Positions 35,381 to 47,950 of a stretch of 64,000 nucleotides of DNA are shown one piece after another. This stretch comes from Escherichia coli. Its GTDB lineage: Bacteria > Pseudomonadota > Gammaproteobacteria > Enterobacterales > Enterobacteriaceae. The notes beneath the pieces are model-generated. The model was not told the origin of the DNA, made no database searches, and worked only from the letters and a program-made list of their open reading frames with translations. The stretch lies in NCBI RefSeq assembly GCF_016903815.1, contig NZ_CP069973.1, one strand, 5' to 3'. How positions within the stretch are numbered: position 1 is the stretch's first letter; the number at the start of each line of letters is the position of its first letter. The position numbers were made by a program, and so were the translations under genes.

Positions 35381-36976
35381 GTGTTAGTTTCCAGTAACGT
35401 CACCATGCAGTTCGGCAGTAAGCCGTTGTTTGAAAACATTTCCGTCAAATTTGGCGGCGGCAACCGTTACGGCCTGATTGGCGCGAACGGTAGTGGTAAA
35501 TCCACCTTTATGAAGATCCTCGGCGGCGACTTAGAGCCGACGTTGGGTAACGTTTCCCTCGATCCCAACGAGCGCATTGGTAAGCTGCGTCAGGATCAGT
35601 TTGCCTTTGAAGAGTTCACTGTGCTGGATACGGTGATCATGGGGCATAAAGAGTTGTGGGAAGTGAAGCAGGAGCGTGACCGCATCTATGCTTTGCCGGA
35701 AATGAGTGAGGAAGACGGCTATAAAGTGGCCGATCTGGAAGTGAAATACGGCGAAATGGACGGTTACTCTGCGGAAGCTCGCGCCGGTGAACTGTTGCTT
35801 GGCGTGGGAATTCCAGTGGAACAGCACTACGGCCCGATGAGTGAAGTTGCTCCTGGCTGGAAGCTGCGTGTGCTGCTGGCGCAGGCGCTGTTTGCTGATC
35901 CGGACATTCTCCTGCTCGACGAACCGACCAACAACCTCGACATCGACACCATTCGCTGGCTGGAACAGGTGCTGAACGAGCGTGACAGCACCATGATCAT
36001 CATCTCGCACGACCGTCACTTTCTTAACATGGTTTGTACCCACATGGCGGATCTGGATTACGGCGAGCTGCGCGTTTATCCGGGCAACTACGATGAGTAC
36101 ATGACGGCGGCGACCCAGGCGCGTGAACGTCTGCTGGCTGATAACGCCAAGAAGAAGGCGCAGATTGCTGAGCTGCAATCTTTCGTTAGCCGCTTTAGTG
36201 CCAACGCCTCGAAATCTCGCCAGGCAACTTCGCGCGCGCGCCAGATTGATAAAATCAAACTGGAAGAGGTGAAAGCCTCCAGCCGTCAGAACCCGTTCAT
36301 CCGTTTTGAACAGGATAAGAAACTGTTCCGTAACGCGCTGGAAGTGGAAGGTCTGACCAAAGGGTTTGATAACGGTCCGCTGTTTAAAAATCTCAACCTG
36401 CTGCTGGAGGTCGGTGAAAAACTTGCGGTACTGGGTACCAACGGCGTCGGTAAATCAACGCTGCTGAAAACGCTGGTGGGCGCTCTGCAACCGGACAGCG
36501 GCACCGTAAAATGGTCTGAAAACGCACGCATTGGTTACTACGCCCAGGACCATGAATATGAGTTCGAAAATGATCTGACCGTGTTCGAATGGATGAGCCA
36601 GTGGAAGCAGGAAGGCGATGACGAGCAGGCGGTACGCAGCATTCTCGGTCGTTTGCTGTTCAGCCAGGACGACATCAAAAAGCCAGCGAAAGTGCTTTCC
36701 GGTGGAGAAAAAGGGCGGATGCTGTTTGGTAAGTTAATGATGCAGAAGCCGAACATTCTGATCATGGACGAACCGACCAACCACCTGGATATGGAATCCA
36801 TTGAGTCGCTGAACATGGCGCTGGAACTGTATCAGGGCACGCTGATCTTTGTTTCTCACGACCGTGAGTTTGTAAGCTCCCTGGCGACCCGCATTCTGGA
36901 AATCACCCCGGAACGCGTGATCGACTTTAGCGGTAATTACGAAGATTATCTGCGTAGTAAAGGGATCGATGGTTAA
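35381..36976 (+). CDS. ybiT: ABC-F family ATPase YbiT (two nucleotide-binding domains, no membrane domain)
   Basis: 531 aa with two Walker A motifs ([18 protein letters not shown]) and two signature motifs. Confidence 0.92.
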
Positions 36977-37155
36977 TTCCCCGCCGTCTTTCATGCGGCA
37001 GATGCATTGGCTTCACCTGTTCACCCCGGTCACTTACTTATTTAAGCTCCCGGGGTTTACAGGTTTGCTGCCTTCCTGCAGCGTGAAATACTGAGGTAAA
37101 GGATTCGATGGCTGGACCGGGTAAGGCGCAGTCGCCTCCCGGCCCCGGTAATGAT

Positions 37156-39531
37156 TTAACGCATCCATTCACTCCCTTCAACACCATTGACCAGCAGCGT
37201 GCGTTTTTCTTCCACTGGTAATGACACTTTCAGTGCACTCCATGCAGGTCGATAATCCCCGCGCGCGTTGACTTTCAGGTTGATGGTCGCCCCATCGCAA
37301 ACCATTTCCCATTCCACCCAAAGCGCATTACCAGTTTGGTAGCCCCAGCTTTCGCCATCGTCTTCAAACAGCAGGCCGGACGTTGTGCCCACACCTTTCA
37401 GCGGGAACAGTTTCAGTTCGCGGGTATCGTCTTGTTCTGCGCTCACATAGGTGATGCGTTTGCTGAGCGGTAGACCAGCCCCGGCACGCACCATCAGCGG
37501 CAGTTTCTCCAGCGGTGCGTCGAGGGTGATCCACTGACCGCCACTGAACCATTCGCCGTTGTAGAAATCGTACCAGCCAGTTTCGTTATCTGGCAGCCAT
37601 ACACGGCGCTGGCGCTCGCCTTGCTCTACGACGCTGGCAACCAAAATATCGCGACCAAGCAGGAAGTCATCACACTCTTCAAAAGTCTGAACGTCGTGCT
37701 CGTGGTCAAGGAAAGTCGGACGTAGCATTGGTTCATCATCGGCGTATGCCTGCCACATCAGGGTATAAAAGTAGGGCAGCAGGCGATAGCGCAACTCAAT
37801 AGCGCTGCGGATCGCCGGAGTGACGCCCGGATACATCCACGGTTCGTTTACGGTATGGTCATCGTTCCACGAGTGAATCGTAAAGCGCGGATGCATCACG
37901 CCGTTTTGTACCCAGCGTACAAACAGTTCCGGGTCCGGCTTATCACCGGAGAAACCGCCGACGTCGTGACCGAGGTTATACAGCCCGGAGAGGCTCATCC
38001 CCAGACCCATGCGGGTGTTGTAGCGCAGAGTGTCCCAGCTAGTGCGGTTATCGCCGCTCCAGGTCTGCACATAGCGCTGCATTCCCGCGCAGCCGGAGCG
38101 GGAGATCAAGTACGGACGTTTTTCCGGAGCGAAACGTTGCTGGGCTTCCATCGAGGCTCGCATCATCAGCAGTGGCATCACCGGGCGAATATGTTTGATC
38201 GCGATCGTCTGACCAAAGCCGTGACAGCGTGCTTCACCGTCCCATACTTCGAATTCGTTGTTGTCGTTCCAGGTGGAGTCGATACCCATCTCCAGAAGCT
38301 GTGTGGTCACGCCTTCCTGCCACCACTGGATGGTCTGCGGATTAGTAAAGTCGAGGTTAGAACCTTCGTCATCCCAGAAGCTGGAACGTTCTGGTTCATC
38401 TGTTTCTGAATCACGGATGAACAGTCCTCTTTCTGCCACTTCGTTATAGCGTGGGTGATCCTGCAACAGGCACGGCTTGATATTGGCGGCCAAGTGCAAA
38501 CCAGCATTGTGAAATGCCTGGCTCATCACTTTCGGCTGCGGCACTTTGTCGTAATTCCAGTTGAACACATAGCGCTTGCCGTTAATTGAGGTATAACCGG
38601 AAGAGAGCTGGAACGAATCGCAGGGAATCGCATGTTCTTCACACAGGCGGATAAAGTTCATCAACTGATTTTGTGCGTCCGGCGCATCGGTGTAGTGCAT
38701 AGTTGAACCGCTGTAGCCCAGGCTCCATTTCGGTCCGAACAGGGTTTTGCCGGTCAGGCGTACGAAGGCTTTGGTGATATCAAGTACGCGTTCGCCGGTA
38801 AACAGGTAGTAGTCGATATCACCCGCTTCCGCCTGCCAGCGGCGATAGGCGGTGTGGTAGTTGTCGATCTCGTTGCCCAGATCCAGCCAGCAGCTGCTGA
38901 GGTTGTCATAAAACAGGCCGAAGCTAACGTCATCGCGGCGGGTGATGGTGAATGGAATGTGTTTGTACAACGGGTCAGTACTCACGGCGTTGTAGCCCAT
39001 CGCGTCGAGGTTACGCATCTCGTAACGTTTACCGTTGCGTTGCAGGTCGCCGGCTTTATCTCCGAGGCCATAAAAGCGTTCATCTTTACGACGGCTCTGA
39101 TAGTGCGCCACGCCGTCGCCGTGGGCATTCAGCAGATAAGCGCTGGTCGGGCGGTCATTCACCAACGGCAGCCATTCGCCTTCGTTGTTACGATAGTGCC
39201 ACTCCAGCCACAGCGGCTGGTGAACGGTGGCACGCAGTGACTCGGTGGCGATAACCACGGTGTCGTCGTGCTGGATCAATGTCCACGCGGGCAGGCTAAA
39301 GCCGCTGAGATCTTCGCGGCTGCGCCCTTCCCATGGCACATCCTGCGCCGGAGCAATGCTCCAGGTGCGATCCAGCGCCAGCTCGCCTTTGCGTTTTAAC
39401 AGCACGCGGAACAGATTTTCTTCCAGCACGTACAGGCACAGGATATGCTGGCCATCGACCAGCAGTTCAACGTGGTGGGCAGACTGTTTGTGCAGGGTCC
39501 AGTTTTTCAGCGTTTTCATGTTTACATCCAC
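37156..39531 (-). CDS. glycoside hydrolase family 31 enzyme (alpha-glycosidase), substrate unknown
   Basis: 791 aa; GH31 nucleophile region (GIDSTWNDNNEF, like WiDMNE) and acid/base region (GHDVGGF, like GADICGF); translationally coupled to the upstream MFS gene; not in K-12 between ybiT and ybiU as recalled. Confidence 0.75.
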   Translation of the reverse strand: MDVNMKTLKNWTLHKQSAHHVELLVDGQHILCLYVLEENLFRVLLKRKGELALDRTWSIAPAQDVPWEGRSREDLSGFSLPAWTLIQHDDTVVIATESLRATVHQPLWLEWHYRNNEGEWLPLVNDRPTSAYLLNAHGDGVAHYQSRRKDERFYGLGDKAGDLQRNGKRYEMRNLDAMGYNAVSTDPLYKHIPFTITRRDDVSFGLFYDNLSSCWLDLGNEIDNYHTAYRRWQAEAGDIDYYLFTGERVLDITKAFVRLTGKTLFGPKWSLGYSGSTMHYTDAPDAQNQLMNFIRLCEEHAIPCDSFQLSSGYTSINGKRYVFNWNYDKVPQPKVMSQAFHNAGLHLAANIKPCLLQDHPRYNEVAERGLFIRDSETDEPERSSFWDDEGSNLDFTNPQTIQWWQEGVTTQLLEMGIDSTWNDNNEFEVWDGEARCHGFGQTIAIKHIRPVMPLLMMRASMEAQQRFAPEKRPYLISRSGCAGMQRYVQTWSGDNRTSWDTLRYNTRMGLGMSLSGLYNLGHDVGGFSGDKPDPELFVRWVQNGVMHPRFTIHSWNDDHTVNEPWMYPGVTPAIRSAIELRYRLLPYFYTLMWQAYADDEPMLRPTFLDHEHDVQTFEECDDFLLGRDILVASVVEQGERQRRVWLPDNETGWYDFYNGEWFSGGQWITLDAPLEKLPLMVRAGAGLPLSKRITYVSAEQDDTRELKLFPLKGVGTTSGLLFEDDGESWGYQTGNALWVEWEMVCDGATINLKVNARGDYRPAWSALKVSLPVEEKRTLLVNGVEGSEWMR

Positions 39532-39533
39532 TC

Positions 39534-40841
39534 TCAGGCGCGTTTTGCGCGACGTTCAGCAATAAAGGTGACCAGGAAGAAAGCACCAATCAGGTCAAAG
39601 AAGCCCATGGCGATAAACAGGGGGTTAAAGCCGATTTTGTCAGCGGTAACCCCGATAATCAGGGAGAACAGGAAACTTGCGATCCACGCGGCAGAACCGC
39701 GCATGCCGTTAACAGTGGCCATCTGACCTTTGTCGAAGGATTCCACCACCAGTGCGCTCAGCATGCAGGAGATGATCTGGTGACCGAAGCCGCCGATGGA
39801 AATAAGGACGATGGCGATATACGGGTTATTGGTAAAGGCCATCACCGCCAGCGAAACCATCAGGAATGCGCCACTGACCGATGATGCGACAACGGAGTTC
39901 ACACGACTCAGCCCAAACAGGCGGGTGTAAAGTTTGGTCAGATAGCCGCTGGCAATACTGCCAAGATCAGCGGCGAGGAACGGCAACCAGGCGAATAATG
40001 CGATCTGCTTCAGGTCCATGCCATAGGTTTTGGACAGGTATAGCGGAACCCAGAAACTCATCACCGCCCACGCCGGTTCTGCCATAAAGGCCGGGATAGC
40101 GATACCGTAAAAGCGTTTATTTTTGCCTACGGTTTTCAGTGCGGTCAGAAAGGGTAACTTGACAGGGGGCGCTTCGTTATCCTGGCGGATAAAGTCCAGC
40201 TCGGCTTTGCTGAGGTTAGGATGCTTATCCGGGTTGTGATAGAACGCCCACCACAGCACCACCCACAGCATCGCCAGGATGCCAGTGAACATAAATGCAC
40301 CCTGCCAGCCGAATGAAGCGTGGGCAAAATAGATAATCGGTGGGGCCAGCATGGCACCGATGGAAAAACCGACGCCTGCCCAGCCTGCGGCGATCGGGCG
40401 TTCTGATTTTGGAAACCATTCACCGATGGTTTTGGCGTTTGCTGGGGTTGCCGCGGCTTCCGCACCGCCCATAAAGAAGCGCAACAGCGCCAGATGTACC
40501 CAGTTTCCCGCCCCCGCATGCATCAGACAGGCCAGCGCCCACAGTCCCGCGCAGATCATAAAGCCCAGTTTGAGGCCAATGACGTCAATCAGCCATCCAC
40601 ACAACGGTTGGAATAGGGTATAGGCGAGCTGGAAAGCACCTACAATCCAGGAATATTGTTCGGTGGTAATCCCCAGGTTGCTTTTCAGTTCGGGGGCGAG
40701 AATACCCAGCGAGTTACGCGTGATGTAGTTGACAGTAACACCGAGCAAAAAAAGGACCAGTATCCACCAACGCAGATTTTTGACGATATGGCGCGGTTTA
40801 CTGGCAGTCATATCGTTATTGATACCCTGACTCATATGCAC
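39534..40841 (-). CDS. MFS transporter, anion:cation symporter (ACS) family, ExuT/GudP-like
   Basis: 435 aa, about 12 TM helices; clear similarity to hexuronate transporter ExuT as recalled (…NYITRNSLGILAPEL…EQYSWIVGAF…GFGHQ…); annotated start is GTG at 40841 with an ATG two codons downstream. Confidence 0.75.
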   Translation of the reverse strand: MHMSQGINNDMTASKPRHIVKNLRWWILVLFLLGVTVNYITRNSLGILAPELKSNLGITTEQYSWIVGAFQLAYTLFQPLCGWLIDVIGLKLGFMICAGLWALACLMHAGAGNWVHLALLRFFMGGAEAAATPANAKTIGEWFPKSERPIAAGWAGVGFSIGAMLAPPIIYFAHASFGWQGAFMFTGILAMLWVVLWWAFYHNPDKHPNLSKAELDFIRQDNEAPPVKLPFLTALKTVGKNKRFYGIAIPAFMAEPAWAVMSFWVPLYLSKTYGMDLKQIALFAWLPFLAADLGSIASGYLTKLYTRLFGLSRVNSVVASSVSGAFLMVSLAVMAFTNNPYIAIVLISIGGFGHQIISCMLSALVVESFDKGQMATVNGMRGSAAWIASFLFSLIIGVTADKIGFNPLFIAMGFFDLIGAFFLVTFIAERRAKRA

Positions 40842-40863
40842 TCCACAGAATGGTATAGGGTTT

Positions 40864-40894
40864 GTGTGGCAACGTCAGAATGGAGTTGTCACAC
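40864..40894. promoter_or_regulatory. imperfect inverted repeat gtgtgGcaac-N11-gttgtCacac in the divergent MFS/LacI promoter region (candidate operator)
   Basis: 9 of 10 bp arm complementarity read in sequence, 23 bp upstream of the MFS start. Confidence 0.3.
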
Positions 40895-41129
40895 CACTTT
40901 TAACTTTTTGATAAATAAAGTCTTTATTGTTCGTTTTTCCATTATTTTTGTATGGAAGTTGTTCTACCAATTCACAGTAAGAGACCCTAAAAGCGAAAGA
41001 AAGCGGGTTTTGTGCACGTTTTTCCATGAGTGACTGATATACATTACTGAAATGGATTTAATGCCAGACAGAATGGGCTTTTTTGCTCATGAAAATTCTG
41101 TCATTTCCGAATTAGAGGCAGATCACAAA

Positions 41130-42233
41130 ATGGACAAGAAGCTGAAAATCGCCGATATCGCCGCACGTACCGGGCTATCGCCGAGTACGGTTTCGCGGGT
41201 GCTGGCTGGCAAAGCGAATACCAGTGCACGCGCTCGCGAACAGGTGCTGGCCTGCGCGCGTGAGTTGGGCGTGATGGATGGCATGGCAGCAGGTCGTATG
41301 TTGCTGAACAACCTGATTATTTTCGCGCCGCAACGCGCTTTTGACCAACGATCTGATATCTTTTATTACCGTGTGATCCAGAGCATCAGCAAAGCGTTAT
41401 CGCCGCATGAAGTGCGGCTGCGTTACTGCGCGCTGGAGGAGTTTGACAGCGATCCCGCGCTATTTCTCTCGCGGATGAATGAAGCAGATACGCAGGCGGC
41501 GATCCTGCTGGGGATTGACGATCCGCACATCCATGATCTGGCCGCCGATCTCGCTAAGCCTTGTGTGCTGATCAACTGCCGTGATGAACGAATGCGCCTC
41601 CCGGCGATTGCGCCGGACCATCGGTTAATTGGCGCGTTCGCCGCCCGCTATCTGTTTGAAATGGGTCACCGGGAGGTGATGAATGTGATGTGCCTGCGCC
41701 GCTACACTATGGAGCAGCGGTTTGCAGGGATTAAAGAATCATGGCGTCAGCATAATCTGGCCTTTCACCATGACCGTCATTTGCTGAATATCAGCAGTTT
41801 TAGCGCTAAAGAAGCGGAAGAAAAGGTCGGAGCGTGGCTGGATGCCGCCAATGGCAAGACGTTGCCGACGGCGTTTCTGGTCGGCGGGGATTTTATGGCG
41901 GCGGGAACGGTAAATGCGCTACATCGTCGTGGTCTGCGCGTACCACAGGATGTCTCGGTGATGAGTATCGACGGCTTTAACCTTGCGGCAATCGAGGATG
42001 TTCCCCTGACGGCTGTGCATGTGCCACGCGATGAGCTAGGCAATGAAGCGGTGCAAATGTTGCAACAGCGGCTGATTCGCCCGGATGCTCCGGTGGGCTC
42101 GCTGCTGCTGCACGGACGATTGGCGGTGCGGGAGTCAGTGCGGCGGGTTCGCCCAGGAAAAGGGAACACCGCCGTGGAACGGGAAGGGCTGTACGACACT
42201 CAGCTGTCGATTCCCAACGCTCGCTTACCGTGA
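41130..42233 (+). CDS. LacI/GalR-family transcriptional regulator
   Basis: ORF 41052..42233; start placed at MDKKLKIADIAARTGLSPSTVSRVLAG (canonical LacI HTH), 367 aa; periplasmic-binding-protein-like effector domain; 3' end overlaps the ybiU 3' end. Confidence 0.8.
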   Translation: MDKKLKIADIAARTGLSPSTVSRVLAGKANTSARAREQVLACARELGVMDGMAAGRMLLNNLIIFAPQRAFDQRSDIFYYRVIQSISKALSPHEVRLRYCALEEFDSDPALFLSRMNEADTQAAILLGIDDPHIHDLAADLAKPCVLINCRDERMRLPAIAPDHRLIGAFAARYLFEMGHREVMNVMCLRRYTMEQRFAGIKESWRQHNLAFHHDRHLLNISSFSAKEAEEKVGAWLDAANGKTLPTAFLVGGDFMAAGTVNALHRRGLRVPQDVSVMSIDGFNLAAIEDVPLTAVHVPRDELGNEAVQMLQQRLIRPDAPVGSLLLHGRLAVRESVRRVRPGKGNTAVEREGLYDTQLSIPNARLP

Positions 42234-43465
42234 ATGTTGAGGTCGGCAAGCGTAAAGCGTCCTTCCCAGTTTGTTTCATAGTCCTCGCGCGGGAAGTCGC
42301 CCGGCGATGCGCCTTTTTCCAGTGCGGCCTTCACCTTGTGCGCGTAGGCAAGATTTTTCTCGCACATCGGTGCCGCAGGAATGTACATCACGTTGCCCCA
42401 GCCCTGTTGATTTTCAACGGGGGCAACGGAATGGATGACGTCGCAGTGCCACCAGACGGAGTCTCCGGCTTCGAGTTTTGGAATGCTGGTTAACGCCTCA
42501 ATCAACAGTGGATGCCATTGCTCTGATACCGGCAATACTCTTCCGGGCGCTACGCCGCACAGTTCATCCTCCGGCACATCATCAAGCAGCGGACGTAACA
42601 GTACGTACGCCATGGCTTCAGGAATGGGCACGACGTGCAGCAGCCCCTGACCAGGCAGCATATCAGAGAGCGCTGTCCAGCCCTGGAATGTCCGAAACAC
42701 GGAACATTTGGTGGTGTTGTCCACCGTGTACTCTTCAACTTCCGTACGATGTGCCGCATGCCAGGGATCGTATTTCGCCAGATTGCCATTAAAGACGTTG
42801 GCGAAAACGTGCTGATACGCTGGAAGCAGCCAGCGTTCCAGCGCCCCGGAGTCGGTATGCGCTCCAAGACCTTTGGAGGTCGTTCCGGGCGGACGGCGGC
42901 GGATACGGTCAGGGTAGATGACGCTCACATCCGGGTTAAACCATTGCTTTCCATCACTTTCAAATGTCCACAGACGATTGAGAAACGACTGCACATTCGC
43001 CATTTCTTCACTCTGGCGGGCCTGCATTTGCGCCTGCGACCAGTAGATGGGGTAAATCTCGGGACGTGAAGCGCTGAGCGTCCCGAAGAAATTATCGCCG
43101 GGGCCTTTGTAGACCTCGTCAAAGCGGTTGCGGTCCAGATAGTCCAGCATCGACTGATCCCAGCCTAGCGCTTGTTCGCGGGGGAAATGGCCTTTTATCA
43201 CCGCACAACCGCGACGTTTAATCTGTTCGCGCTGCTCTGCAGTAACATGACCTGCTTTGATATCGGCATAAGACAGCACCGGCCAGACGGCATCGCCCTG
43301 TGCTTTGAGTGCGTTGATTTCAGCCACTCGCGTGGCAATGTCATCGCTTAGCTGATTAAAGATCTGCTGGACGTCGCCAAGCTGCGCCCGCAGCGCGTGC
43401 TTCATCTGACGGATAGCTGCTTTGTGATCGGCAGGCAATGTGTCGCTGGTAAAAGTAGAAGCCAT
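42200..43465 (-). CDS. ybiU: DUF1479-family protein YbiU
   Basis: ORF 42200..43471; start placed at the ATG giving MASTFTSDTLPADHK (421 aa). Confidence 0.85.
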   Translation of the reverse strand: MASTFTSDTLPADHKAAIRQMKHALRAQLGDVQQIFNQLSDDIATRVAEINALKAQGDAVWPVLSYADIKAGHVTAEQREQIKRRGCAVIKGHFPREQALGWDQSMLDYLDRNRFDEVYKGPGDNFFGTLSASRPEIYPIYWSQAQMQARQSEEMANVQSFLNRLWTFESDGKQWFNPDVSVIYPDRIRRRPPGTTSKGLGAHTDSGALERWLLPAYQHVFANVFNGNLAKYDPWHAAHRTEVEEYTVDNTTKCSVFRTFQGWTALSDMLPGQGLLHVVPIPEAMAYVLLRPLLDDVPEDELCGVAPGRVLPVSEQWHPLLIEALTSIPKLEAGDSVWWHCDVIHSVAPVENQQGWGNVMYIPAAPMCEKNLAYAHKVKAALEKGASPGDFPREDYETNWEGRFTLADLNIHGKRALGIDS

Positions 43466-44577: not shown

Positions 44578-47010
44578 TTACAGCATATGTTCAGTACGGG
44601 CGATGATATCGTCCTGTGCGTCTGGAGAGAGCGCGGTGAAGAAGGCGGAATAGCCCGCGACGCGCACTACCAGATCGCGATACTGATCGGGATGTTTTTT
44701 CGCCTCCAGCAGCGTTTCGCGGGAAACGATGTTGTACTGAATATGCCAGCCTTTATGCACCTCGAAGAAGGTGCGCAGCAGGATCATCAGTTTCTGCTTG
44801 TCAGATTCGTTCTCCAGTGTTGCTGGATTCAGTTTCTGGTTGAGCAACACGCCGCCGAGAATCGCTGCCGTAGGCAGTTTACCCACCGAGCCAATGACCG
44901 CAGTAGGGCCAAGATGATCAGTACCGGAAGCCGGGCTTGCGCCTTCTGCCAGCGGGGTGTGGGCTTTACGCCCGTCCGGTGTTGCCATAGTCTGCGCGCC
45001 AAACGGTACGTTAGCGGAGATAGACGACGTACCCGCGTAATAGTTGCCGCCAACCGGACCACGACCGTAGCGTGGGTTATGGTACTGTTTCAGTTCGTCG
45101 ATATAGGTCTGATAAGCGCGAGCCAGCAGCGTATCGACGGTATCATCGTCGTTGCCGTACTTCGGCGCACCGTTAATCAGCCGCTGACGCAGTTGCTCAT
45201 GAGTCAGGCCATCGAAGTCATCCGCCAGTGCGGCAGCCAGCTGTTGCTGACCAATCGCGCCCTGTTCAAACACCAGTTTCCTCACTGCCGCCAGGCTGTT
45301 GCCGAGGTTGGCAATGCCGACCTGCAGGCCAGAAACCCAGTCATATTTCGCGCCGCCTTGCTTGATACTTTTTGCTCGCTCAATACAGTCATCCACCAGC
45401 GCCGAGCAGAGAATATCGTGCACATTCTCCTCCAGCATGGTGTCAACGACATATTCGATTTCGATTGATTTGCGGGTGTAGTAACGGATTTGCGTGTCCC
45501 ACGCGTCCATTACTTCATCGAAATTGTTAAAGTTCCCTGCCGACAACGCTTTTTCTTGTGGCAGGAACACTTTGCCGCTGGTGGCATCACGACCGCCTTC
45601 CAGCGCCGCCAGCATCACACGGGCGAAGTTGATAAAGCTCATGCCGGTACAGCGATAGCCCCATTTGCCACCGACGGCGGTTTCGATACAACCAATCGCT
45701 GCATAGTCGTAAGCGTCCTGCGGTTCAATACCGAGTTTAATAAATTCCGGGATCACGATTTCGTCGTTGTTGAACGCCGGCATCCCGAAGCCGCAACGGA
45801 TCACCTGTACGCAGGCGTCGAGGAAATCGTTGCTCATTCCTGCATGGTAACGCACGCTGAGGTTAGGCTGAGTGGAACGCAGGCGACCGCAGGATTCGAG
45901 GATCGCGTAAGAGAGTGGATTCACCGCGTCCATTGGTTGACCATCAACCAGATTTTGTCCGCCAATGGTGACGTTCTGATACAGCGGACTTCCCGCAGAG
46001 GCTTTCGAGTGCGAGCCGGAGCGGATTTTGTTCACTTCCAGCAGTTTCAACCAGCAGCTATGCAGCATCTCGATGGCGTGTTCACGATCCAGCGTCTGGT
46101 TGAGTTCAACGTCGCGACGATAATACGGGTACAGATACTGGTCCATACGACCAAAAGATACTGAGTGACCGTTAGATTCGATCTGCAAAATCAACTGGAT
46201 GAAGTAACACAGTTGCAGCGCCTGCCAGAAAGTCTGCGGCGGCTGGTGGGCGATAAGATCGCAGTTTTCTGCCATCGCCAGCAGTTCATCGCGACGGCTT
46301 TCGCGGGTTTCGGTCGCGGCCATTTCACGCGCCAGGGCAGCGAAACGTTCAATGTGTTCACTGACTGCCACCAGCACGATATCAATCGCTTTCAGGAACT
46401 GCTCGCCATGTAAATCTTCCAGCACCGTCAGGTTGATGCGCGAGCGACGTTCCGCTACTTTCTCGCGCAGACCATCAAGACCTTTTTCCAGCAGTAGCGG
46501 GAAATTCACCGCCAGGTGCGCATCGCCGGAGGTCATATTGCCTTCCGCTTTAATGATTCCGGTCGCCAGCAGACCTTTTTGCTCATCGGTAAACATGCCG
46601 TAGCAGCGATCCTGTACCGTCTGACCGCGCCACCAAGGGCACACTTCATGCAGAACACGTTTGTTCTCTTCGCTCACCGCAAAGCCAGCACCGGGACGAT
46701 CTGCCAGATCATCAATCTCTTTTTCGATCCAGGAGACGGTATATTCCGGGAAGATCGGCGCGGCGCGAACTTCGCTTGCCTGGTTGCCAATGATCAACTC
46801 ATCGTGCTTGATCCAGATGGTGCGATTCGCCAGGTGATGCGCCAGCGCCAGCGCGCGACGTACCGGGATCGGCTTATCGAGATGTTGTTGATACATCTCA
46901 GTATAGTGCTGCGCGCGCTCGGTACAGACCGGCGGTTTCACAATATGCACCAGCGCATTTTTGTGCGCTTTAATGCGATCGCTGAGCGTGTCCAGTTTCA
47001 GTGTGGTCAT
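44578..47010 (-). CDS. ybiW: glycyl radical enzyme YbiW (PflF), pyruvate formate-lyase-like; substrate not established
   Basis: 810 aa; C-terminal glycyl-radical motif RVAGYSA present. Confidence 0.92.
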
Positions 47011-47015
47011 GGTTG

Positions 47016-47915
47016 TTATCCTCGTAAGGTCGCGGTTAACCCTTTCTGGCAGGCATACTGCTGGGCAAAGTCGAGCAGTTCTGGCGCATCAAGCGGTTGT
47101 TCCGGGGCGTCATAGGGCAGATTAAGTAAGTGATATTTGTTGATGCCCAGCGTGTGGTAGGGCAGGAAATGAATTTCGCTAACGTGCAGCTCGTCGGCGG
47201 CAAAATCGGTAATGGCTTTTACAGAGGTTTCGTCGGCATTAAAGCCCTGAATCAGCGGCACGCGGATAATGATTTTTTTGCCCGCTGCGGCGAGTTTTTT
47301 CAGGTTATCCAGCACTCTGGCGGCGTTACCGTCGGTCCACTGTTTAAACGGCGCGTCGGCAACGTGTTTTAAATCGGCAAGAAACAGATCGATATAGGGC
47401 AGAGAAGGGGCGATATATTTCCACGGCACATGCAGACAAGTTTCTACCGCAGTATGAATGCCGGCCTCGTGGCTGGCTTGCAGCAGCGCCGTCGCCATTT
47501 CCGGCTGCATGAATGGTTCACCGCCGGAAAGCGTTAAGCCGCCGCCGCTGCGATCGTAAAACGGTTTATCCCGCAAAACGGTCGCCATGATCTCCTCAAC
47601 GCTTTTCACTTCACCACACACGGTTAACGCCTGTGTCGGACAGCAGTCGGTTAACGCCGTCAGATGCTCCGGGGTTAACTTTTCCCGATGAATAAGCAAA
47701 CCATTCAGCGCGCGCTCAATCACGTCCGGCGCGGTCTTAGCGCACAGCTCACAGCCTTCCAGGCACAGACGTGGGTCATACAGCAGATCCTGCGTGCGGG
47801 CGCGGCTTTCCGGGTTCTGACACCAGCGGCAGCCCAGCGAACAGCCTTTAAGAAATACGACCGTGCGGATACCGGGGCCATCATGGGTCGAGTAGCGTTG
47901 AATATTGAAAATCAT
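47016..47915 (-). CDS. ybiY: glycyl-radical-enzyme activating enzyme YbiY (PflE), radical SAM
   Basis: ORF 47016..47942; start placed at [15 protein letters not shown] (299 aa) with SD gagagg; CxxxCxxC cluster motif (GCSLGCRWC). Confidence 0.88.
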
Positions 47916-47950
47916 AGTTGCCTCTCTGTTTCGTTCAAACATTAAAATAC

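Follow-up and report, generated by a model that had tools for sequence, protein, structure and literature searches.

Gene content of the locus

A 64,000-nucleotide stretch of Escherichia coli DNA (contig NZ_CP069973.1, assembly GCF_016903815.1; hereafter the window, numbered from its first letter) carries a three-gene module between ybiT and ybiU, at positions 37156–42233. The module consists of a minus-strand operon for a major facilitator superfamily (MFS) transporter and a GH31 glycosidase, together with a divergent LacI-type gene. Judging from comparisons of sequence and gene order, we put the probability at roughly 0.6 that it is a system for the uptake and hydrolysis of α-glucuronides, which would make it the α counterpart of uidABC.

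The GH31 gene lies at 37156..39519 on the minus strand (RefSeq ATG at 39519, 787 aa), within an open reading frame (ORF) that extends to a GTG at 39531 (791 aa). Upstream of it, the transporter gene occupies 39534..40835, also on the minus strand, and encodes 433 aa from a conserved GGAG-N7-ATG start at 40835 (ORF to 40841, 435 aa). Because only 14 nt separate its stop codon from the GH31 ATG, the two genes are taken to form one operon. The LacI-type gene lies on the plus strand at 41130..42233 (367 aa from an ATG at 41130 that is conserved across genera; RefSeq start at 41073; ORF from 41052, 393 aa) and is divided from the operon by a divergent regulatory spacer (40836..41129) with conserved blocks in a cross-genus alignment. 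RefSeq names in genomes identical to the window are generic ('glycoside hydrolase family 31 protein', 'MFS transporter' and 'LacI family DNA-binding transcriptional regulator'). ORFs and homology agree with a preliminary description made from the letters of the stretch, which recognised, between ybiT and ybiU, an ExuT-like transporter of the anion:cation symporter (ACS) family, a GH31 enzyme and a LacI-type gene in divergent orientation; the host-like base composition that it mentioned was also recovered, with GC contents of 0.46–0.60 across the module and 0.47–0.55 in the upstream flank.

Active site of the GH31 enzyme

The GH31 protein cluster carries the Pfam domains PF13802, PF01055, PF21365 and PF17137, and the features by which the family is recognised are present, namely a catalytic (β/α)8 domain with flanking N- and C-terminal β domains and the catalytic aspartate pair. 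At E ≤1e-10, 68 GH31 chains in the PDB match the protein, the best match being the α subunit of endoplasmic reticulum glucosidase II (5f0e, 5dkx; E 8.7e-80 over residues 147–737). The next solved relative is a Flavobacterium protein (6jr6) deposited as a candidate GH31 α-glycosidase, which we take to be the dextranase FjDex31A, while YicI (E 2.8e-36) and YihQ (E 1.6e-31) are distant matches. The best NCBIfam model is the MalA α-glucosidase, which scores 305 bits where its cut-off is 800. The nucleophile D419 and the acid/base D490 align with D405/D472 of YihQ and D416/D482 of YicI, and R474 and H549 are also conserved. Among 115 full-length representatives of 50%-identity clusters, drawn from the 150 best matches, D419 is kept in all 115 and D490 in 112.

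Ligands of the −1 sugar set the enzyme apart. In C. thermophilum glucosidase II, Asp443 hydrogen-bonds the −1 glucose directly, Asp482 does so via water and Trp415 stacks on it (PMC4742823). A HMMER alignment, combined with residue spacing, places S306 at the position of Asp443, K348 at that of Asp482 and M274 at that of Trp415; the pocket-lining Ile of glucosidase II corresponds to N346, and the Met that follows the nucleophile to N420 (WNDNNE in place of WiDMNE). The combination of N346-x-K348, N420 and no Asp at 306 occurs in 103 of the 115 representatives, and 11 canonical α-glucosidases that lack the set carry I/M-x-D/N/E, M/L and Asp instead. In an alignment of 36 subfamily sequences, M274, S307, G308, R316, N346, K348, N420 and E422 are invariant. 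By these characters the enzyme belongs to a large uncharacterised subfamily that lies outside the canonical α-glucosidases, whose −1 ligands it lacks, and outside any characterised neutral α-glucosidase or xylosidase clade.

Two acidic ligands have thus been lost, and a lysine gained, on the O4/O6 side of the −1 sugar, which is what a C5 carboxylate would need. In GH2 β-glucuronidases the C5 carboxylate of glucuronic acid is bound by an N-x-K motif (PMC7933434), and N346-x-K348 may be a carboxylate clamp of the same kind. We lean slightly towards glucuronic acid, rather than a neutral sugar, as the occupant of the −1 subsite.

The preliminary description had instead drawn an analogy with the sulfoquinovosidase YihQ. 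A sulfonated sugar as substrate would suit the GH31 membership of the enzyme, its anion-type transporter and the alignment of R316 with R301 of YihQ, but the analogy did not survive closer comparison. The YihQ sulfonate triad R301/W304/Y508 corresponds to R316/F319/F523 here, so that W304 and Y508 are both replaced by Phe, and R316 is conserved in glucosidase II too; YihQ is moreover a far weaker match than glucosidase II. Sulfoglycolysis genes (yihS, T, U, V or equivalents) were found neither in the window neighbourhood nor in a survey of 80 loci, one genome per species, onto which the reference proteins were mapped. Together with an identity to YihQ of 23%, these observations led us to reject a sulfoquinovosidase, the chance of which we consider negligible.

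The transporter

Over its whole length the transporter is 43% identical to ExuT of strain K-12 (414 aa, E 3e-120). It also matches DgoT in the PDB (E 1.1e-38), with equivalents of DgoT R47, R126 and E133 kept and a Thr at the position of D46, as in ExuT. The NCBIfam ACS model TIGR00893 gives 268.7 bits, under its trusted cut-off of 395. The transporter and GH31 genes are adjacent in 79 of the 80 species loci, and distant transporter relatives at 45–48% identity are still paired with GH31. We assign the protein to the ACS family as a paralogue within the ExuT clade, and it is predicted to be an H+ symporter for an anionic glycoside.

Glucuronate genes around related modules

In nine loci of Erwinia and Pantoea that have no LacI-type gene, the transporter–GH31 pair is divergent from uxuA-(uxuB)-uxaC-uxuR. 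All four encoded functions exceed their NCBIfam cut-offs in Pantoea dispersa, with UxuR at 451 (cut-off 442), glucuronate isomerase at 668, fructuronate reductase at 803 and mannonate dehydratase at 683. More distant loci were collected as representatives at 40–53% identity and by a metagenome scan with the subfamily alignment; five of the distant representatives (P0121, P0122, P0124, P0125 and P0127) lie on short or uninformative contigs. Six gammaproteobacterial metagenome loci, whose GH31 proteins are 53–65% identical to that of E. coli, share the arrangement uxuA<-uxuR<-...<-dctP / dctQ-dctM-GH31-uxuB-uxaC(-kdgK), in which a tripartite ATP-independent periplasmic (TRAP) transporter stands beside the enzyme. 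TRAP and ACS transporters are carboxylate-oriented systems. These loci and those with the arrangements that follow represent separate lineages whose GH31 identity is 43–65%. Further architectures among distant loci are eda-kdgK-uxaC-manD-GH31; uxuB-uxaC / manD-kdgK-eda-dctQ-dctM-GH31-dctP, with glucuronate isomerase, ManD and Eda above their NCBIfam cut-offs; and ExuT-like MFS-GH31-porin.

In one of the TRAP-type loci (L133), the only one in which the gap between uxuR and dctP was examined, that gap holds a gene for a 596-aa GUS-like GH2 protein (L133:5214-7004, minus strand). Its best match is β-glucuronidase; it has the NENP, SETG and YYGWY hallmarks and carries the GUS N-x-K motif as FNLKG. 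At this locus uxaC is followed by kdgK. Putative β- and α-glucuronide enzymes would thus share one UxuR-controlled locus.

Context was counted at 54 loci whose GH31 protein is <70% identical to that of E. coli and that have at least 3 kb of flank. Within 6 kb, a uronate-pathway gene was present at 14, a TRAP system at 9 and an ExuT-like MFS gene at 13, with any of the three at 26. Since four different operon designs agree, free glucuronate is a probable product of the GH31 reaction. The preliminary description had spoken of an anionic glycoside; ExuT paralogy, the glucuronate genes and the UxuR-type boxes described below back that claim and narrow it to a glycoside that contains glucuronic acid, which we hold to be a highly probable substrate of the module. 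A member 43–44% identical to the E. coli enzyme (L093:2680-4782) adjoins genes for AP_endonuc_2 (sugar isomerase/epimerase-like) and DUF993 proteins, not uronate genes, a context that suggests that the subfamily may include other specificities.

The association with glucuronate might be coincidental or secondary if the module served an ordinary neutral α-glucoside (nigerose, kojibiose or an isomalto-type sugar). Orthologues are named 'alpha-glucosidase' in the sources, MalA is the best NCBIfam match even if its score falls far below the cut-off, and some subfamily members stand beside CUT1 sugar ABC transporters. Links to uxu, uxaC, manD, kdgK, eda, TRAP or ExuT-type transporters and UxuR boxes nevertheless recur in at least four operon architectures, and the canonical −1 ligands are missing, which makes this explanation improbable.

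Free glucuronate could also arise as the leaving group of an α-glucosidase, α-galactosidase or α-xylosidase that holds a neutral sugar in −1 (acting, for example, on α-glucosyl-glucuronate or on an aldobiouronic-type polysaccharide fragment), with the transporter reading the carboxylate of the reducing-end sugar. The gene context demands no more than free glucuronate as a product, and the nearest solved structures, glucosidase II and FjDex31A, are α-glucosidases; the operons showed no gene dedicated to catabolism of a special aglycone, which would fit glucose as the second product, and the GUS-like GH2 protein that co-occurs might point to a mixed-linkage oligosaccharide. The residues that distinguish the subfamily (S306, K348, M274, N346 and N420) belong, however, to the −1 and not the +1 subsite, and the changes there take away precisely the acidic ligands on the O4/O6 side of glucose. 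We regard this arrangement as unlikely.

Regulatory region

The cross-genus alignment of the regulatory spacer brought out a palindrome, TTGGTNNACCAA, of UxuR type. In K-12 the palindrome occurs twice, 106 bp apart, in the spacer between gntP and uxuA, and once upstream of uxuR (3 occurrences against 0.29 expected); binding of UxuR to the gntP–uxuA spacer is established experimentally (PMC5934670). The K-12 uxaC–exuT spacer has no copy at ≤1 mismatch, and we therefore read the palindrome as a UxuR-type box rather than as a general ExuR/UxuR box. An ExuR-type operator was rejected on the same ground.

Across the 80 species loci, the 39 kb of sequence that precedes the MFS genes contains 38 boxes at ≤1 mismatch and the rest of the loci, 1.6 Mb, contains 12, an enrichment of about 130-fold upstream of the transporter genes. 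The Erwinia and Pantoea loci have two boxes 105–106 bp apart, like the K-12 gntP–uxuA spacer, and boxes of this type also occupy the dctP/dctQ spacer of the TRAP-type loci, where a perfect AAATTGGTTGACCAATTT is found in two of the six. The E. coli box, TTGGTAGAACAA, at 40959..40970 on the minus strand, lies 135 nt upstream of the transporter start and has one mismatch to TTGGTNNACCAA. At the orthologous position, Kluyvera and Pseudocitrobacter likewise have a one-mismatch box; a single perfect box, beside the LacI-type gene, occupies it in Serratia, Hafnia, Atlantibacter and Enterobacillus. A candidate sigma-70-like promoter for the operon (40941..40970, minus strand; −35 TTGGTA, 18-nt spacer, −10 AATAAT) overlaps the box with its −35 hexamer; it is a match to the consensus only, and such matches in the region are not above the number expected by chance.

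A 16-bp LacI-type palindrome, ATGAAAATTCTGTCAT (ATGAAATTCTGTCAT-type), at 41089..41104, has two mismatches to the cross-genus consensus ATGAAAAAATTTTCAT, and its columns are at least 90% conserved across 21 genera. It has the form of a LacI operator, but with an A/T centre instead of the usual CG. The conserved ATG of the LacI-type gene follows about 25 nt downstream, and the palindrome is a probable operator through which the LacI-type protein would regulate its own gene. A second, weaker half-palindrome at 41012..41027, with a conserved TGA-AA...TGCA-AA block, departs from the consensus at 5 positions in E. coli. An inverted-repeat finder applied to the E. coli spacer returned nothing at its thresholds, and the operators emerged only from the cross-genus alignment. 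The ATG at 41130 is invariant across the 21 genera. Since the conserved palindrome falls inside the N-terminus annotated by RefSeq, we favour the later start, 41130, as the true one, and the RefSeq start at 41073 is probably too far upstream. The LacI-type protein itself has only sub-threshold NCBIfam matches (RbsR, CytR and PurR); its orthologues carry the Pfam domains LacI (PF00356, helix-turn-helix) and Peripla_BP, in keeping with membership of the LacI/GalR family.

Proposed function

In the scheme that we propose, the ExuT-paralogous MFS symporter would import an anionic glycoside, which the cytoplasmic GH31 enzyme would hydrolyse with retention of configuration (nucleophile D419, acid/base D490) to free D-glucuronate. 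The glucuronate would then pass through the core pathway UxaC -> UxuB -> UxuA -> KdgK -> Eda. Glucuronic acid in −1 could be accommodated through the loss of two acidic ligands (S306, K348), its C5 carboxylate being clamped by N346-x-K348. The divergent LacI-type repressor would hold transcription off, with the glycoside presumably acting as inducer, and UxuR would probably add a second layer of repression, possibly a decaying input. The comparisons show the gene content, the homologies, the synteny, the association with glucuronate genes and UxuR boxes and the active-site substitutions; the direction of transport, the −1 sugar, the aglycone and, for E. coli, the two regulatory interactions are inferred.

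Several observations weigh against the scheme. In the E. coli box, the mismatch falls in the conserved ACC, and the site is not significant by itself (3 in the window against 2.2 expected); most loci of Enterobacter, Klebsiella and Citrobacter have no box at ≤1 mismatch, an absence that may reflect decay of UxuR control in lineages in which the LacI repressor replaced it. A sequence alignment to glucosidase II is the basis for putting N346 and K348 close to C6. Nor does membership of the ACS family prove an anionic substrate, because ExuT, when activated, is reported to carry glucose (PMC6989600). At the 54 loci, a CUT1 ABC sugar transporter lies within 6 kb in 11 and none of the reference genes in 17, and for this reason the subfamily need not share one substrate. 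No enzyme assay, growth or expression data were found for any subfamily member, and a natural α-glucuronide accessible to enteric bacteria was not identified in this analysis. The literature search returned no account of the operon or of a GH31 α-glucuronidase, with the GH31 subfamily study and the 2011 study of the UxuR/ExuR regulon outside its reach.

Aldobiouronic acid from glucuronoxylan is a plausible natural substrate. Enterobacter asburiae JDR-1 reportedly ferments 4-O-methylglucuronoxylose from xylan, which K-12-derived strains are said to be unable to do, as described by Bi and colleagues in 2009. An E. asburiae genome in our species survey (L015) carries the module, which, if the proposed function is right, could explain this reported difference between JDR-1 and K-12.

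We see an even chance that the enzyme is the first GH31 α-glucuronidase and the type of a large subfamily (about 100 of the 115 representatives), with an N-x-K clamp convergent with that of GH2, and that the module represents an α-glucuronide branch of the UxuR regulon across Proteobacteria. GH31 would in that case gain α-glucuronidase activity, and a function would be assigned to unannotated 'alpha-glucosidase / TIM-barrel domain' proteins that number in the thousands and could be recognised by a simple signature (S/G at the position of the β3 Asp, N-x-K-P on β4 and WNDNNE). The module would be the missing α counterpart of the gus/uid operon, equipped with an ExuT-type, TRAP or ABC transporter, and would provide an entry for α-glucuronides into the hexuronate pathway of gut and plant Enterobacterales that varies between strains (about 10% of complete E. 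coli genomes); most sampled species of Klebsiella, Enterobacter and Citrobacter carry it. Such an entry may matter for how plant xylan fragments, glycolipid head groups or microbial polysaccharides are used in the gut, and it is a candidate for E. coli biocatalysts that use the acid-stable aldouronates of hemicellulose hydrolysates.

Distribution and history of the module

The order ybiU / LacI / MFS-GH31 / ybiT is common to >40 species of Enterobacteriaceae. The longer arrangement ybiY-ybiW-ybiV-ybiU / LacI / MFS-GH31 / ybiT was found in Klebsiella, Raoultella, Enterobacter, Leclercia, Citrobacter, Kluyvera, Kosakonia and Pluralibacter, and also in Phytobacter, Trabulsiella, Pseudocitrobacter and Salmonella enterica subsp. 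diarizonae. In genera that share the full order, identities to E. coli are 85–91% for GH31, 82–95% for YbiU and 88–97% for YbiW. Since >40 species share the gene order and the divergence of GH31 matches that of the flanking genes, the module is old at this locus, and comparative data support its being a long-standing resident of the moeB–ybiT region in Enterobacteriaceae that has been lost from most E. coli. The preliminary description had suggested such an ancestral state with loss in K-12, and the same gene order across many genera of the family upholds it. A recent foreign import into E. coli was rejected in view of the host-like GC content, the exclusively chromosomal location, the conserved locus and the low divergence within the species (0–1.8%).

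Among complete E. coli genomes, 575 (at ≥80% coverage) to 577 of 5426 carry the module, always on the chromosome and with 98.2–100% identity (classes at 100, 99.6, 99.1 and 98.3%). In K-12-type genomes ybiU directly follows ybiT, as the preliminary description had stated, with about 250 bp of repetitive extragenic palindromic (REP)-like palindromes instead of the module. These genomes align with the window as far as the stop codon of ybiT and again from 7 nt within the 3' end of ybiU (about 42207).

The flanking genes lie outside the module. On the left, ybiT, for an ABC-F ATPase, occupies 35381..36976 on the plus strand, and on the right ybiU (DUF1479) occupies 42200..43465 on the minus strand (to 43471 in the six-frame ORF list). 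The 3' ends of ybiU and the LacI-type gene share 34 bp (42200–42233), exactly as first described. YbiT ends in ...SKGIDG (531 aa) in module carriers and in ...SKGIE (530 aa) in K-12-type genomes, which places the left breakpoint within the last ybiT codons (window 36969–36976). The convergent ybiT and GH31 genes are separated by a spacer at 36977..37155, with the left junction to K-12-type genomes at about 36969–36976. This spacer of 179 nt has a strong predicted RNA fold (−78.6 kcal/mol, z = −5.2) with a GC-rich hairpin at its start. No U-tract terminator was called in it; a bidirectional terminator and a REP-like element are both possibilities.

Three states of the locus were seen in E. coli: module with ybiU, ybiU only, and neither. 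The last is illustrated by strain 317, one of some E. coli from which ybiU is missing, where ybiV directly follows ybiT. The K-12-type ybiT–ybiU spacer carries an insertion of IS621 (IS110 family) in several strains. In strain IH5 the region around the GH31/MFS junction is present in three partial copies of about 1 kb, and a phage capsid-cement gene adjoins one or more of them.

In the 80-locus survey, the LacI-type protein of E. coli is closest to that of Kluyvera (89–90%) and ybiU is closest to that of Citrobacter. Identities of the LacI-type protein to E. coli fall into a high group of 81–90% (Kluyvera, Salmonella diarizonae, Pseudocitrobacter and one Citrobacter amalonaticus) and a low group of 73–77% (Enterobacter, Klebsiella and most Citrobacter). 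These groups depart from the similarities of ybiU and ybiW and thus hint at recombination at the locus; as the LacI-type gene of E. coli is nearest to Kluyvera but its ybiU to Citrobacter, exchange among genera of Enterobacteriaceae at the ybiT–ybiU locus is possible.

Relationship to the neighbouring glycyl-radical-enzyme genes

Beyond ybiU, the window contains ybiW and ybiY (44578–47942) followed by fsaA. The preliminary description called this glycyl-radical enzyme (GRE) an orphan, a label that no longer applies. According to Ma et al. (JACS 2024), as summarised in PMC12441222, YbiW and PflD cleave 1,5-anhydroglucitol-6-phosphate and 1,5-anhydromannitol-6-phosphate to 1-deoxyfructose-6-phosphate; the substrates enter through the phosphotransferase system (PTS) and FsaA takes the product.

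It had also been proposed that the module and ybiU-ybiV-ybiW-ybiY-fsaA form one anaerobic route for the breakdown of an anionic glycoside. This idea draws on the adjacency of the two gene sets in Enterobacteriaceae and on the overlapping 3' ends of the LacI-type gene and ybiU. The two sets are distributed independently, however. Buttiauxella has gsiA-iaaA-moeA-moeB / LacI / MFS-GH31 / ybiT without ybiUVWY, and in Cedecea, Mangrovibacter and others, which have LacI / MFS-GH31 / ybiT, ybiUVWY was undetected in the flank examined. In Serratia the module sits between a protease gene and xseA, and it is also present without the GRE cluster in Hafnia, Erwinia and Pantoea. The GRE genes lack the module in about 89% of E. 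coli, and co-occurrence of the two goes no further than adjacency in one family. The PTS supply of the YbiW substrate and the use of its product by FsaA (PMC12441222) also speak against a shared route, and elsewhere GH31 travels with genes of the oxygen-independent Ashwell pathway. A functional link between the module and ybiUVWY-fsaA is thus not supported by genome comparison, and we give the shared pathway very little credence; the neighbouring GRE appears to be unrelated to the GH31 module.

The same neighbourhood raises the question of a lyase. If the GH31 protein acted like α-1,4-glucan lyase, it would yield a 1,5-anhydro-ketose and could be tied to the adjoining 1,5-anhydroglucitol-6-phosphate genes. 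GH31 lyases carry an Asn, N459, where glycosidases have an Ile that lines −1 (PMC12441222), and N346 stands at the position of the Ile of glucosidase II. The equivalence of N346 and N459 is presumed, and E422 of the WNDNNE motif is kept. Operon partners such as uxaC need free glucuronate and not an anhydro-ketose, and the presence of the module does not follow that of the GRE cluster. A lyase is accordingly very improbable.

Comparison with known systems

Returning to the proposed α-glucuronide system, its transporter resembles ExuT of the exu regulon, with which it shares the T-R motif of the first transmembrane helix and 43% identity over the full length. Unlike ExuT, it is a paralogue that is always paired with GH31 and not with uxaCA, and its likely substrate is a glycoside rather than a free hexuronate.

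Among GH31 enzymes, glucosidase II has the same nucleophile, acid/base, Arg and His ligands, whereas the module enzyme is bacterial and cytoplasmic, has no β subunit and has its −1 ligands replaced. YihQ, with the transporters YihO/YihP, offers the parallel of a GH31 enzyme for an anionic, C6-modified, gluco-configured sugar with a dedicated transporter; it differs in its low identity (23%), in keeping the β3 Asp that the module enzyme has lost, and in the families of its transporter and pathway genes. YicI/YicJ is likewise a two-gene transporter–GH31 operon for a small α-glycoside, but YicI is also only 23% identical, has D306-C307-F308 and INPY in place of S306-S307-G308 and NIKP, and is served by a GPH transporter, YicJ.

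The predicted reaction is that of the GH67, GH115 and GH4 α-glucuronidases, which take part in the use of aldouronates in Geobacillus, Paenibacillus, Bacteroides and Thermotoga and are linked to uxaC/uxuAB in the same way. Their folds and mechanisms are unrelated to those of the module GH31 enzyme: GH67 and GH115 invert, and GH4 is NAD-dependent.

The closest parallel in design is uidABC (gusABC). Both systems would join a glucuronide transporter to a cytoplasmic glycosidase of TIM-barrel fold whose action supplies free glucuronate to UxaC-UxuBA, and both enzymes have an N-x-K motif (PMC7933434). Some relatives of the module have a porin gene after the enzyme, in the position of uidC. The uid operon is controlled by a local repressor and by UxuR. 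The components themselves differ throughout: the module has a GH31 retaining α-glycosidase, its α specificity being predicted, in place of a GH2 β-glucuronidase, an ACS/ExuT-type MFS transporter in place of the GPH-type UidB, and a LacI-type regulator in place of the TetR-type UidR.

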